DNA from: Armatimonadota bacterium
GTDB lineage: Bacteria > Armatimonadota > Fimbriimonadia > Fimbriimonadales > Fimbriimonadaceae
NCBI GenBank assembly: GCA_031400935.1
Contig: JANNQV010000028.1
Coordinates: 233,565 to 253,564, forward strand
Length of the DNA stretch: 20,000 nt
Direction: 5' to 3'
Both the position numbers and the translations under genes were made by a program. Positions within the stretch are counted from its first letter, which is position 1. Every line of letters starts with the position of its first letter. Under the pieces are notes generated by a model. That model ran no database searches. It was not told the DNA's origin and worked only from the letters and a program-made list of their open reading frames with translations. Positions 10,113 through 15,764 of this stretch are shown piece after piece.

Positions 10113-13100
10113 TTATATCACGCCCTTCTCCCTCAATTTCGGATAATGGCATGCCTTGAACTTTTTGCCGCTTCCACAAGGACAGGAGTCATTCCGGCCG
10201 ACCTTTGACCAATCTTGCTTTGACTCGTCGAACGAGACGCTTGAACCAATCGCTGCCATCGCAGGAATCGAATCGCCGGCTTCCATTCGAACCATTGCAG
10301 GCGCTTCATCGGCAGACTCTTCAGATTGCTGAGCATCTTGAACCTGAATCTCCGCCCGAAAGATCATTCGCACCGCTTGATCACGGATCTGTTTGAGCGT
10401 GGTTTGGAAGAGGTCAAAAGTCTCTCGCTTGTAAGCAACTAGAGGATCGGTTTGGCCGTATCCTCTTAGGCCAATGCCTTCGCGGATGTACTCGACCATC
10501 TGCAAATGCTCCATCCACTTGTCGTTAACGGCGCGAAGCATGACCTGCTGTTCGAGCGAAGCCATAATCTCGTCACCATATCGCTCGGCTTTTTGTTCAT
10601 ACGCAGCCATCGCAAATTCTGTGCATTTGTCAATGAGTTCATCGCCCACTGGAATCGCTCGAAGATCGTCTACCGATGCAAAATCAACAAGCGGGAAAAG
10701 TCCATTTAGGTCTTCGTACAGAAGGCCGTGATCGTAATTTCTTCCTTCGTTTTCATCTATTACCCAGGCGTCGTTAACGATGTCCGTAATCATCTGTTTG
10801 ATGAATTCCACGAGGTCTTCGCGAACGTGCTTGCCGAGCAAGACTTCGCGCCTCATGCCATAAATGTGCTCGCGCTGAGCGTTCAAAACGTCGTCATATT
10901 CGAGTACATGCTTTCGAGCTTCAAAATAGTGGTTTTCTATTCGCTCTTGCGTTTTCTCTATCATTCGGCTCAGGAATTTTGCGTTCACTTCTTCCATTGG
11001 CGGCCATGCCTTGAGCAGTGGATTTTCGAGCATATTCGCGTTGAAAATCTTCCAAAGCTGGTCTTCGAGAGACACATAGAACCTGCTCTCGCCAGGGTCG
11101 CCTTGTCGGCCCGATCTTCCTCGAAGCTGGTTGTCAATTCGGCGGCTTTCATGCCGTTCTGTGCCAAGGATATATACTCCGTCAAGTGCTCGAACCACTT
11201 CAGCAACCTCTCGTCGTTCTTGGTCGCTCAATGGAAGTGGAGGAGCAGCACGTTCCTTACCACCGCGACGGAAGCTAGAAAAAGTGGATTCGTATTGTTC
11301 CAAAAGAGGGTCGCCATCTGAATCTCTCGCTCGAACGATCTGCTCATCTTGAATTCGTCCGCCAAGCAAAATATCTACGCCACGGCCAGCCATATTTGTT
11401 GCAATAGTCACAGCGCCTTTTCGACCAGCTTCAGCGATAATTAGCGCCTCTCGCTCATGGAATTTTGCGTTTAAGATGTTGTGCGGAATACCGTGAGTCA
11501 GCCCTTCTTCCAAGTACGATTTGTTTTCGCTTGTCAGCTTCCATTGTTCGAGCGCCCAGTCCATATTTTCTTGTGAAAATGCCTCACCGCTAAATCCAAT
11601 CTTGCTCGCGAAATTTGCTAATGCCTTTCGGTCTTGGTCAGCGAGAGGAGTATTCGTGATTTCAATTACATCCTTCACAATGTCCTTGGGGACATCCTTT
11701 TTGACTTCCAAATGGTATCGAAGCCTTTGCGACAGCACTAATTTCTGCAAAAGGTCGGTCGTCAAACGTGTTGACATAACTTCCGACATTTCGATAGAAC
11801 GAGTGCCGATTAGAACGGGTTGCTGCTTGGAATACAAACGCAAGACGTCCCAAGTAATCGCGCGAAACTTCGCTTCAAGCGTCTTGAAAATGATGTCGCC
11901 GTGATCAATTCGGATCATAGGGCGATGTGTCGGAACGCAGACCACATCGAGGCCGTAAATTTTTCGAAATTCGTCTTCTTCTGTTTTCGCTGTACCCGTC
12001 ATTCCAGCGAGTTTTTCGTAAAGTCGGAAGAGATTCTGGAAAGTGATAACTGCAACGGTTTGGCTCTCACGCTGAACAGTTACGTTTTCCTTAGCCTCAA
12101 GCGCTTGATGAAGTCCATCGCTCAACCGCCTTCCAAACATGAGCCTGCCGGTGTTTTCATCAACTAGTACAACTTCGTTACCGCGAACTACATAGTCCAC
12201 ATCTTTGTCAAAAAGCGCGACTGCTTTTACGGCAGCATTGACGTGATGCAAAATCTTTGGATCGCTCGCGATGTTGTCAATCTCCATCGTCTCTTCGACA
12301 AGGTCCATGCCATCTTCAGTAAGTGAAACCGAATGGTTTTTCTTGTCAGCTTTGTAGTGAGTTTCGTTTTCAAGCTTCTTTGCGATTTCATTGATGTGCT
12401 TGTAAAGCGAGACATCCTCGTTGCTTGCGCCCGAGATAATGTGTGGTGTTCTGGCCTCGTCAATGAGGATCGAGTCAACTTCGTCAACGATTGCGTAATG
12501 AAGTTCTCGCATCGAAAGTTGCGAAATATCGAACGCCATATTGTCGCGAAGATAGTCGAATCCAAACTCATGGTTTGTGCCATAAACAACGTCGCATAGA
12601 TAGGCTTCTCGACGTGAACAAGAAACCAGATTCATATATCTTGGATCGCCGAGTTGGTCTGCTCCAGGAACATAAAGGTAGCTCCCGCCGAGCTCTTCTG
12701 TGTCTTCGCCTTGGCCCTGAATAATGCCAAGCGATATTCCGAGAAAATGGAAAATGGGACCCATCCAGACTGCGTCACGACGAGCTAGGTAATCGTTGGC
12801 GGTAACGAGATGCGCTCCGCGGCCCGTTAAGGCATTTAAGATCAGCGGTGCAACTGCAGCAAGGGTCTTTCCTTCGCCCGTTTTCATTTCGGAGATTCGG
12901 CCTTGGTGGAGCACCATGCTGCCAACATGCTGAACGTCAAAGTGACGCATTCCGAGTGTGCGACTCGAGACCTCACGGACTACGGCAAACACTTCCGGAA
13001 GTAGTTGGTCTAAGGTCTTGCCTGTTGCAATTTGCTCTTTGAAGGAAGGGCCTTTGGCTCGCAATGCATCATCGTCGAGGGCAGATATCTCGGTTTCAAA

Positions 13101-13181
13101 TGCGTTGATTTGCGCCACGATTGGAAGCAGCATGTCAACGTCTTTCTTGCTAGTGTCGAATATTTTTCGTAGGAAATTCAT
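10113..13181 (-). CDS. secA: Preprotein translocase ATPase SecA
   Basis: MKTGEGKT, VDEVDSILIDEARTP, GMTGTAKTEE, ATNMAGRG, RIDNQLRGRSGRQGDPG and a C-terminal SEC-C motif CPCGSGKKFKACH. Confidence 0.99.
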   Translation of the reverse strand: MNFLRKIFDTSKKDVDMLLPIVAQINAFETEISALDDDALRAKGPSFKEQIATGKTLDQLLPEVFAVVREVSSRTLGMRHFDVQHVGSMVLHQGRISEMKTGEGKTLAAVAPLILNALTGRGAHLVTANDYLARRDAVWMGPIFHFLGISLGIIQGQGEDTEELGGSYLYVPGADQLGDPRYMNLVSCSRREAYLCDVVYGTNHEFGFDYLRDNMAFDISQLSMRELHYAIVDEVDSILIDEARTPHIISGASNEDVSLYKHINEIAKKLENETHYKADKKNHSVSLTEDGMDLVEETMEIDNIASDPKILHHVNAAVKAVALFDKDVDYVVRGNEVVLVDENTGRLMFGRRLSDGLHQALEAKENVTVQRESQTVAVITFQNLFRLYEKLAGMTGTAKTEEDEFRKIYGLDVVCVPTHRPMIRIDHGDIIFKTLEAKFRAITWDVLRLYSKQQPVLIGTRSIEMSEVMSTRLTTDLLQKLVLSQRLRYHLEVKKDVPKDIVKDVIEITNTPLADQDRKALANFASKIGFSGEAFSQENMDWALEQWKLTSENKSYLEEGLTHGIPHNILNAKFHEREALIIAEAGRKGAVTIATNMAGRGVDILLGGRIQDEQIVRARDSDGDPLLEQYESTFSSFRRGGKERAAPPLPLSDQERREVAEVVRALDGVYILGTERHESRRIDNQLRGRSGRQGDPGESRFYVSLEDQLWKIFNANMLENPLLKAWPPMEEVNAKFLSRMIEKTQERIENHYFEARKHVLEYDDVLNAQREHIYGMRREVLLGKHVREDLVEFIKQMITDIVNDAWVIDENEGRNYDHGLLYEDLNGLFPLVDFASVDDLRAIPVGDELIDKCTEFAMAAYEQKAERYGDEIMASLEQQVMLRAVNDKWMEHLQMVEYIREGIGLRGYGQTDPLVAYKRETFDLFQTTLKQIRDQAVRMIFRAEIQVQDAQQSEESADEAPAMVRMEAGDSIPAMAAIGSSVSFDESKQDWSKVGRNDSCPCGSGKKFKACHYPKLREKGVI

Positions 13182-13192
13182 TTTTTATCTCA

Positions 13193-13220
13193 GGGTATGG
13201 GGTTTAGGGTGCAGGGTACT
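13193..13220 (-). repeat. 4x heptamer NNNACCC tandem just upstream of the secA start
   Basis: Plus-strand units gggtatg gggttta gggtgca gggtact. Confidence 0.6.
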
Positions 13221-13244
13221 GGGCGGGGGCTTTCGGAAAGAAAC

Positions 13245-13285
13245 GCAGACTTTAGTCTGCATCTGGATCACAGACTTTAGTCTGT
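13245..13285. repeat. Two direct copies of the palindrome CAGACT-TT-AGTCTG (REP-like)
   Basis: gcagactttagtctgc at 13245-13260 and acagactttagtctgt at 13270-13285 share an identical 14-nt core. Confidence 0.75.
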
Positions 13286-13348
13286 AAAATCCGCGCAAAT
13301 ACGAATGAGCGCTAGAAAATCGAGCGACACAGAAACAATGTCGCCGAA

Positions 13349-13714
13349 CTAAGCCGGCCCAGCACGATTCGGATGAATCCTTGAAGCGACGACTGAAGCC
13401 AAACGCTCTGTCCGAATAGGATGAATCTGAATCCGGATGAGGGATTCAGAAATCGGTTCTGAATCTTGCGAATTTGTTTCTGTATCAAACCATTGAATCA
13501 GCAAATTCGTAACTGTCGCGATTCGTCGCGACGTTTCAATTGCGATCGCATCCGAATCAAGATCGTCCGAATTCTCAATACAACGCTTGCCCTCAAGTCG
13601 CGGGTCGCAAAGTAGGGCCAAAGCTTCCGTAAACTGGCTCGATGCAATACCACGATCTATTCCAAGTGAACCTTGGAGGATTAGAATCAGCAGTGCAGGC
13701 AAAAATGGAAGCAT
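13349..13714 (-). CDS. Putative SecM-like secretion-monitor / translation-arrest peptide
   Basis: Hydrophobic N-terminus (MLPFLPALLILILQG), C-terminal RIHPNRAGPA-stop, same strand and directly upstream of secA. TATAAT lies 15 nt before the ATG. Alternative start TTG 13783. Confidence 0.7.
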   Translation of the reverse strand: MLPFLPALLILILQGSLGIDRGIASSQFTEALALLCDPRLEGKRCIENSDDLDSDAIAIETSRRIATVTNLLIQWFDTETNSQDSEPISESLIRIQIHPIRTERLASVVASRIHPNRAGPA

Positions 13715-13729
13715 TTTTCTTCTTCCACT

Positions 13730-13735
13730 ATTATA
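13730..13735 (-). promoter_or_regulatory. Consensus -10 box TATAAT for the secM-like/secA unit
   Basis: Perfect TATAAT on the minus strand 15 nt upstream of ATG 13714. No clear -35 element. Confidence 0.5.
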
Positions 13736-13908
13736 GACGGGAATCGTTCGTAATTGAGCGTATTTGGGACCAATTGTTGTCAATTATCAGTTCTCGGATA
13801 TCAGTCAAAAGTGGATCGGAAGGCAGATTTCGTAGCCGTATTTTCGGTTTCGAGAGCCAACCTGATTTACACTTTGTGCAAATTTAGCGGCAACAATGAC
13901 AATGTCAA

Positions 13909-13952
13909 CAACCTGCCAGCAACTTGCAAACCACTTGCCAAACACATGCCAA
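13909..13952 (+). repeat. 4x degenerate 11-mer tandem repeat
   Basis: caacctgccag caacttgcaaa ccacttgccaa acacatgccaa. Confidence 0.6.
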
Positions 13953-13994
13953 ATTTCCATACGATGAAGCTTCCAGTCCAAAAAGCCGATCATG

Positions 13995-14000
13995 TATACT
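13995..14000 (+). promoter_or_regulatory. -10 box TATACT of the tRNA promoter
   Basis: TG-extended TATACT (catgTATACT) 11 nt before the tRNA 5' end. Confidence 0.55.
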
Positions 14001-14011
14001 AGGATCGCTGC

Positions 14012-14101
14012 GGAGAGATGGCTGAGTGGACGAAAGCGCCCGCCTGCTAAGTGGGTAAGGGGTTAAACCCTTCTCGGGTTCGAATCCCGATCTCTCCGCC
14101 A
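14012..14101 (+). tRNA. tRNA-Ser (anticodon GCT)
   Basis: Acceptor stem GGAGAGA/TCTCTCC, G discriminator and encoded CCA. Anticodon loop CT-GCT-AA, long variable arm, T-loop GGTTCGAATCC. Confidence 0.97.
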
Positions 14102-14166
14102 TTCTGATTTGTATGGAAGGCAATGAGGCTTGCAAGTAGATAGCAGGTTGTACACAAGTCGCCGCC

Positions 14167-15212: not shown

Positions 15213-15764
15213 TCAGTCCTTCAAAATCCTGCCATACCCGTCATACTTCAAATTGCCACTTAGAATGAGTACGCCATCTATCAGCGGCCAAAGCACTCCA
15301 ACGCCGGTACAAAGAGTAACAAATAGCTGAATGACTCCAATCGCCGCATAGCCAAGATACATCCTTCCGACGCCTGGAAGCACGATGTTCAATATCCCAC
15401 CTGCGACCTTCGACTTGTCGCTTCGCAGCGCAGGAAAATTGCCCATAGGAGACATTGCCGGATACGAATCTTGATATGGTGAAGGCGATCCGTAAGGTTG
15501 ATAGCTCCCAGATGCTTGAGGCTGCATGACTGGAGGAGCAGTTCGTGGCATATTTGGCGGCGGAGGAGGCGCCATCATCGCAGGTGCAGATGCGAATTTC
15601 GCCTTCAAATCTCCGACGTGATCGGCAGGGAGCCATTGCGGCATTCCGGTGCACCAGATATATGTTTCGCGCACCACAACGCCCCCTTCAATCAACTCTT
15701 CCATTTGATCGAGGGTGAGCGGACCAAGTTGCCCGTAATGCCCAATGTAAAACCAATCCGCCAC
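15213..15764 (-). CDS. GYF_2 (DUF4339-like) + Pro-rich linker + TM2-domain membrane protein
   Basis: WFYIGHYGQLGPL...ETYIWCTGMPQW (GYF_2) and KSKVAGGILNIVLPGVGRMYLGY (TM2). GTG start. Confidence 0.85.
   Translation of the reverse strand: MADWFYIGHYGQLGPLTLDQMEELIEGGVVVRETYIWCTGMPQWLPADHVGDLKAKFASAPAMMAPPPPPNMPRTAPPVMQPQASGSYQPYGSPSPYQDSYPAMSPMGNFPALRSDKSKVAGGILNIVLPGVGRMYLGYAAIGVIQLFVTLCTGVGVLWPLIDGVLILSGNLKYDGYGRILKD

Follow-up and report, generated by a model that had tools for sequence, protein, structure and literature searches.

Does the short open reading frame that precedes secA in this member of the Armatimonadota encode a peptide that reports on protein secretion by arresting its own translation? 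The original prediction had described, immediately upstream of secA, a frame with a hydrophobic N-terminus and a terminal RAGP motif, located 167 nt before secA on the same strand. Re-reading the sequence of the window, that is, the whole stretch of 20,000 nucleotides that was analyzed, showed that all of these coordinates are correct. The features on which the analysis of the upstream open reading frame (uORF) is based are the following:

10113..13181, minus strand: secA, 1022 aa, complete, with all five SecA Pfam domains
13349..13714, minus strand: uORF of secA, 121 codons plus a TAG stop codon (sequence, family HMM, dN/dS)
13658..13714, minus strand: N-terminal hydrophobic signal-like segment, residues 1-19, MLPFLPALLILILQGSLGI (hydropathy, profile match)
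13355..13366, minus strand: codons CGT GCT GGG CCG for R117-A118-G119-P120, the predicted site of arrest (P site, Gly119; A site, Pro120)

The frame is open from 13783 to 13349 on the minus strand and ends with the TAG codon at 13351-13349. As start codon, the ATG at 13714 is favored over the TTG at 13783, because position 1 of the family profile aligns to MLPFLP and the starts of the orthologs agree. The resulting protein of 121 aa begins with MLPFLPALLILILQGSLGIDRG, continues with an acidic and polar middle part, and ends with LASVVASRIHPNRAGPA, so that the residues SRIHPNRAGPA directly precede the stop codon. Its hydrophobic core comprises residues 3-13, with a Kyte-Doolittle value of 2.67 for the 11 aa from residue 3. 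The stop codon is separated from the secA start codon (ATG at 13181) by a gap of 167 nt on the same strand (13348..13182). Upstream of the uORF, a tRNA-Ser gene is located on the opposite strand, and this was the only hit above threshold in an Rfam scan of positions 13100-14150. A Pfam search with the 121-aa protein returned no family at E 0.001. Elsewhere in the window, the minus strand at 15213-15764 encodes a 183-aa protein with GYF_2 and TM2 domains, which is unrelated to the uORF and secA.

The conservation of this arrangement was analyzed in the GTDB family to which the window belongs. With the N-terminal 200 residues of SecA as query, secA was identified in 61 of 61 genomes, and upstream DNA was present at 59 of these loci; two genomes (G036 and G082), in which secA is located at a contig end, were left out. 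All 59 loci harbor a same-strand uORF ending in R-[D/A]-G-P, located 0-17 residues from the stop codon and 45-180 nt before secA, with a median gap of 78 nt at 54 loci. A hydrophobic N-terminus, mostly of the form M-L/F-P-x-L-P-A-L-L-L-L-L-Q-G, is present in each of the 57 uORFs with a complete 5′ end, a count from which L043 and L055, cut at their 5′ side, were left out. In an alignment of 53 uORFs, mean column identity is 19%, and R117, G119, and P120 are the only invariant columns, while M1 and P6 are nearly so; the same R, G, and P are also invariant in all 54 rows of the uORF table. The original prediction had suggested looking for a signal-like N-terminus together with the terminal motif in related genomes, and both are indeed found there (57/57 and 59/59, respectively), the core being R-[D/A]-G-P. 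A secA-upstream arrest-type peptide therefore appears to be universal in the family, with 59 of 59 examinable loci as compared to five published members.

The uORF of locus L073, from a reduced, AT-rich genome of 1.5 Mb in the same family (G065), is extremely divergent: its sequence is rich in Lys and Ile and its hydrophobic core starts at residue 14, while RAGP is kept.

A short frame of this kind, for which no Pfam family exists, might also be open by chance or have been called wrongly within a leader that is non-coding. Of the 19,699 stop-to-stop frames with 60 aa or more in the window's own genome (G000; 2.97 Mb, 67 contigs), only four show R[AD]GP among the 24 C-terminal residues, two of them as RAGP, and the secA uORF is the only one of these 19,699 frames that combines such a tail with the hydrophobic N-terminal pattern xP[ALIV]hhh. 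We also built a profile HMM from 51 secA uORFs of other genera, leaving out the genus of the window. Among 27,917 frames of G000 (at least 50 aa), the window uORF was its sole match, aligned end to end with an E-value of 2.5e-8, and the next best frame had an E-value of 2. In comparison with the congener G001, the uORF shows a dN/dS of 0.15 at a dS of 0.63, and secA a dN/dS of 0.03 at a dS of 0.77. Up to P120, the two genomes agree in each of the last 17 residues, whereas there is strong divergence in the spacer that follows. The RAGP codons are unchanged wherever they are covered by short contigs from four public DNA runs. The conservation at 59 of 59 loci, the HMM match, and the dN/dS refute a chance ORF, to which, considering also the low rate of such tails, we assign a practically negligible probability. 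Judged from these sequence comparisons, the uORF is a real gene under purifying selection.

Outside the family, no R-x-G-P-tailed ORF was found upstream of secA in the 25 genomes from the four sister families of the order (f2-f5). The same holds true for 35 loci that represent 24 further families of the phylum Armatimonadota, among which the start of secA was not re-located by tblastn in five and the upstream DNA was short in two. At locus L131 (G108, family f16), a same-strand frame of 141 aa with a hydrophobic N-terminus ends with LSYGSRAPPHAA (SRAPPHAA) about 206 nt before secA; it is a candidate for another arrest peptide in this phylum, unrelated to the uORF family and of the RAPP type. 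In genomes of families f8 and f19 (e.g., G098, G111, G124, G127, and G163), the match to the N-terminus of SecA is located inside frames of ∼2,200-2,600 aa, about twice the normal size of SecA, so that some Armatimonadota may encode SecA as part of very large fusion proteins.

Arrest peptides from this order have been described before. The group uA_RQH_Fimbriimonadales was named by Fujiwara, Tsuji, Yoshida, Takada, and Chiba (2024, Nat Commun 15:2711; PMC10987492). According to the accessible part of that article, uORFs of secA, secDF, and yidC were screened in more than 30,000 genomes with RDGP among the query motifs, and the criteria were a small ORF without known function, an N-terminal signal, a conserved C-terminus, and a spacer of more than 30 aa. 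In the same part of the article, the group comprises five rows, all of them with RDGP, a P-site Gly, and signals called by SignalP-6.0 at residues 1-20/22. A 131-aa RDGP member caused efficient arrest with B. subtilis ribosomes in vitro, while arrest in E. coli was weak in vitro and efficient in vivo; stalling of this member was shown to depend on its conserved Arg, an R124A mutant of it was built, and substitutions of Arg or Pro are stated to have abolished arrest “in most cases” (PMC10987492, accessible part). The uORF of locus L053, from a genome of the window's GTDB family (G068), is a one-residue variant of this tested 131-aa peptide, as judged by eye from the sequence given in the accessible part.

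The window uORF agrees with this group in its overall organization. It is a short ORF without a Pfam family, directly upstream of a complete secA and on the same strand, in a host of the order Fimbriimonadales, since G068, which carries the variant of the tested peptide, shares its GTDB family with G000. The N-terminal hydrophobic segment (Kyte-Doolittle 2.67) aligns with the N-terminus in which the accessible rows of the group have their SignalP-6.0-called signal. Far more than 30 residues separate the signal from the motif (hydrophobic core at 3-13, R at 117), and the C-terminal RAPP-like motif is conserved as R-[D/A]-G-P at 59 of 59 loci, with A in the window and D in the published members. 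Like the published rows in the accessible part of the article, it is a secA uORF of the same family with the N-terminus M-L/F-P-x-L-P-A-L-L-L-L-L-Q-G, an R-x-G-P core near the stop codon, a comparable length (121 aa vs. 92-131 aa), and a signal-core spacer well above 30 aa. Homology is indicated by the HMM lacking the window's genus (E 2.5e-8 over the full length). Pairwise BLASTP between the uORFs of the window and L053 was not significant (E 0.66), and in a profile-profile comparison with hhalign the match was confined to the N-terminal 20 columns. Because pairwise similarity is not significant while the profile match is strong, membership in the group rests on profile, position, and motif. 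The uORF differs from the five rows in the accessible part of the publication in its core (RAGP instead of RDGP) and in its distance to secA (167 nt including a repeat element vs. 78-134 nt), its flank lacks the G-F...S-x-R-[ST] consensus, and a helix opposite the secA start region, predicted for many orthologs of the group, is not predicted in the window.

Based on these observations, we consider it probable that the window uORF is the Fimbriimonadaceae secA-upstream monitoring substrate (uA_RQH_Fimbriimonadales), with the arrest core R-A-G-P in place of R-D-G-P. A literature search for RDGP arrest peptides of Fimbriimonadales or Armatimonadota yielded nothing beyond PMC10987492, whose supplementary figures may show RAGP members. 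The comparison with published arrest-peptide families that the original prediction had called for thus revealed that the kind is already in print, going by the accessible part of PMC10987492. The prediction itself, a SecM-like secretion monitor before secA, holds as far as the uORF is an ortholog of a published arrest-peptide group, while a stall at RAGP and control of secA would follow by analogy to its relatives.

The family uses two spellings of the core. RDGP is found at 47 and RAGP at 12 of the 59 loci, the latter in G000, G001, G005, G075, G007, G012, G080, G016, G022, G062, G065, and G073. Both spellings occur within two genera, g7 (A in G007, D in G077) and g16 (A in G016, D in G083). 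Since the codons GAY and GCN are one base apart, a switch between D and A is easy and recurrent and, as judged from the aligned cores, the RAGP spelling is a natural D/A toggle within the family. This toggle can be compared with published data on RAP-type cores: the accessible part of PMC12992588 describes that Ala-to-Asp substitutions partly keep arrest, that RAGP supports arrest within ApdP, ApcA, and SecM backgrounds, and that RAGP is under-represented in bacterial proteomes. Because R, G, and P are invariant and the RDGP members in the accessible part of PMC10987492 are listed with a P-site Gly, the uORF would be expected to stall when Gly119 is attached to the P-site tRNA and Pro120 occupies the A site.

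The sequence essential for arrest also includes the region adjoining the core (PMC12992588, accessible part). At the loci of the family, this region shows a consensus of G at -8 (30/54), F/L/Y at -7 (33/54), S/C at -4 (32/54), and R at -2 (35/54). The window flank, VVASRIHPN, departs from this consensus.

The RAGP core is shared with SecM of the Enterobacterales, which is likewise encoded by a signal-bearing uORF of secA and has its stop codon a few codons downstream of the core, and with both peptides the P site is expected to contain Gly and the A site Pro. The arrest region of secM pairs with the secA start region, and a comparable pairing is predicted in many orthologs of the Fimbriimonadaceae. 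The two peptides differ in that they come from different phyla and that the window uORF has no sequence similarity to SecM. The SecM segment F-x4-W-I-x4-G-I is absent, the 13 residues before RAGP being RLASVVASRIHPN, and no match to the Pfam family of SecM was found in the uORF at E 0.001. Since the majority core of the family is RDGP, we regard the identity of RAGP with the core of SecM as convergent, due to a single A/C nucleotide toggle, and not as the result of shared ancestry. The absence of this segment and of a Pfam match bears out the suggestion of the original prediction that the peptide is not homologous to SecM and possibly of independent origin.

ApdA, ApdP, ApcA, and the other RAPP-like (RQH) peptides have in common with the uORF a C-terminal core of Arg, a small residue, Pro or Gly, and Pro, an N-terminal localization signal, and a position upstream of a Sec or YidC gene. 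In contrast to the window uORF, whose core is RAGP and whose downstream gene is secA, ApdA, ApdP, and ApcA have RAPP or RAPG cores, precede secDF or yidC, are found in other phyla, and have no sequence in common with it beyond the core. Another short peptide, YwcI of B. subtilis (upstream of sacT), is reported to give a Pro-dependent arrest at RAGP with Gly in the P site; it is unconnected with the Sec pathway and has no homology to the window uORF.

How could a stalled ribosome affect secA? For each of the 59 loci, the folding of the RNA segment that starts 45 nt upstream of the Gly codon and extends to position +21 of secA was predicted in three states: as free RNA, with 30 nt around the P-site Gly (the footprint) kept unpaired, and with a shuffled footprint. 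The secA start region was defined as positions -18 to +6. On average, 3.9 base pairs are expected between the native footprint and this start region, compared to 1.3 for the shuffled footprint. Accessibility of the start region is 0.52 in the free state, 0.60 with the footprint shuffled, and 0.62 with the ribosome in place (paired Wilcoxon test, p 2e-5, which is overstated because related genomes are treated as independent), and the gain exceeds 0.15 at 18 of 59 loci. At four loci (L036, L041, L052, and L080), the part of the leader that adjoins the AUG on its 5′ side is predicted to form a helix with the codons that specify R-D-G-P and the tail, as in the SecM arrangement. For the window and G001, whose secA start regions are A/C-rich, masking of the start region is not predicted: accessibility is 0.72 in the free state and 0.65 with the footprint open, and the cross pairs amount to 0.04. 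The sole long-range helix formed by the arrest codons of the window (13365-13357 with 13224-13216) was rejected, as it is not kept in G001. A SecM-like pairing of arrest codons and secA start is thus predicted for a considerable share of the family, and is not predicted for the genus of the window.

The region between uORF and secA, together with the upstream region, contains the following features:

13182..13348, minus strand: uORF-secA spacer, 167 nt, C 0.29 and G 0.19, secA start region predicted to be unpaired (sequence, RNA folding)
13245..13285, minus strand: REP-like tandem hairpins ACAGAC-TAAA-GTCTGT, then GCAGAC-TAAA-GTCTGC, in the spacer; a low-copy intergenic repeat of the genome
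13323..13345, minus strand: hairpin GGCGACA...TGTCGC directly after the uORF stop codon; its stem, unlike the T-rich tail, is conserved in G001
13881..13908, minus strand: σ70-like match TTGACA-16 nt-TAAATT, 167 nt upstream of the uORF start; one match compared to a mean of 1.1 in shuffles

With 167 and 180 nt, the spacers of the window and G001 are the longest in the family. C exceeds G in 57 of 59 spacers (mean C 0.375, G 0.227), compared to 607 of 1,313 control regions, i.e., the 60 nt upstream of long ORFs of G000 (C 0.236, G 0.226), a control that comes from one genome. Such C-rich, G-poor spacers would be in line with base pairing to the G-rich arrest codons and also with the loading of Rho. 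In most secA leaders, no obvious Shine-Dalgarno sequence is seen, and the ATG follows CGAGAACC in several of them.

Terminator-like matches after the uORF stop codon number four, compared to 1.0 in shuffles, and three of the four overlap. A conserved terminator or attenuator at this place was rejected, since the T-tail is not kept in G001. The REP-like unit consists of a hairpin, a linker of ∼9 nt, a second hairpin, and a T-rich tail. In G000 it accounts for nine hairpins at six intergenic places, with both orientations toward the neighboring genes represented (the other sites are C14:41170, C20:69461-69486, C28:87869-87894, C8:2852, and C18:90648). G001 holds a covarying version at the same spot (CGGAA/TTCCG stems), and the stretch is found in other contexts in other metagenome contigs. 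Based on its sequence, the hairpin pair with its T-rich tail might terminate or process the uORF-secA transcript.

From these features, the following mode of action can be proposed. The uORF and secA would be co-transcribed from a promoter upstream of the uORF; no σ70-like match was found in the spacer between the two genes. The N-terminal signal-like segment, which lies ∼100 residues ahead of the core, would engage the Sec pathway before synthesis of the C-terminus is complete. By analogy to the tested member and the published structures of the SecM/RAPP class, the ribosome would stall while its P site holds the tRNA carrying R117-A118-G119 and its A site the Pro120-tRNA. Active secretion would pull on the nascent chain and release the stall, while poor secretion would prolong it. 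A longer stall would then lead to more secA expression, in many orthologs by melting of the predicted helix in which the arrest codons pair with the secA start region. For this genome, we infer both a stall at RAGP and a resulting increase in the expression of secA. The induction of secA by the stall is the least secure step here, as the masking helix is not predicted in the window.

It is therefore conceivable that the same arrest peptide has another output, in which the stall controls the continuation or stability of the transcript across the spacer, for example, by a TnaC-like block of Rho loading or through the REP-like hairpins. The excess of C over G in the spacers, unlike the composition of the 1,313 upstream regions of G000, would be in agreement with this idea, as would the unmasked start regions of the window and G001 and the hairpin repeat with its T-rich tail. 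However, C-richness is also required for pairing with the G-rich arrest codons (CGN GAY GGN CCN), and such helices are seen; furthermore, the composition control stems from a single genome, and the C-rich stretch of the window lies ∼115-150 nt beyond the stop codon, out of reach of the stalled ribosome. We therefore consider another output unlikely. The same rather low probability applies to the more specific proposal that the monitor has been rewired in the genus of the window, where the core would have changed to the RAGP of SecM, flank consensus and masking helix would have been lost, and a REP-like pair would have been inserted into the C-rich spacer, resulting in TnaC-like control via Rho loading, termination, or RNA stability. 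In this proposal, the repeated toggling between D and A would represent a natural experiment, according to which position 2 of R-x-G-P is free and the core of SecM is one nucleotide away from RDGP.

The loss of the family flank consensus and of the pairing with the start region, together with the lengthening of the spacer by the repeat, could also mean that arrest was lost altogether in this genus and that an ordinary small secreted protein, in which RAGP is tolerated, keeps its place before secA. Conservation within the genus, which spans the whole peptide and not the C-terminus alone, points in the same direction. This explanation has to account for the invariance of R, G, and P at 59 of 59 loci and for the identity of the last 17 residues up to P120 in G000 and G001 at a dS of 0.63. 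Pfam suggests no other function for the protein, and the under-representation of RAGP in proteomes and its ability to arrest translation in several contexts (PMC12992588, accessible part) likewise argue against a merely tolerated motif. A loss of the arrest function thus seems very improbable to us, clearly more so than a different output.

The preferred reading therefore remains that of a family-wide secretion-monitoring peptide with a RAGP core in this genome. It contains little that is new in kind, because secA-upstream RAPP-like arrest peptides of Fimbriimonadales are already in print. New are the apparent universality of the peptide in the family (59/59), the negative result upstream of secA in the 25 genomes of the sister families and the 35 loci of other families, the toggle between RDGP and RAGP, and the predicted pairing in part of the family. 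The D/A and flank variants of the family provide a ready natural set for testing the contribution of the second core residue and of the flank to ribosome stalling.
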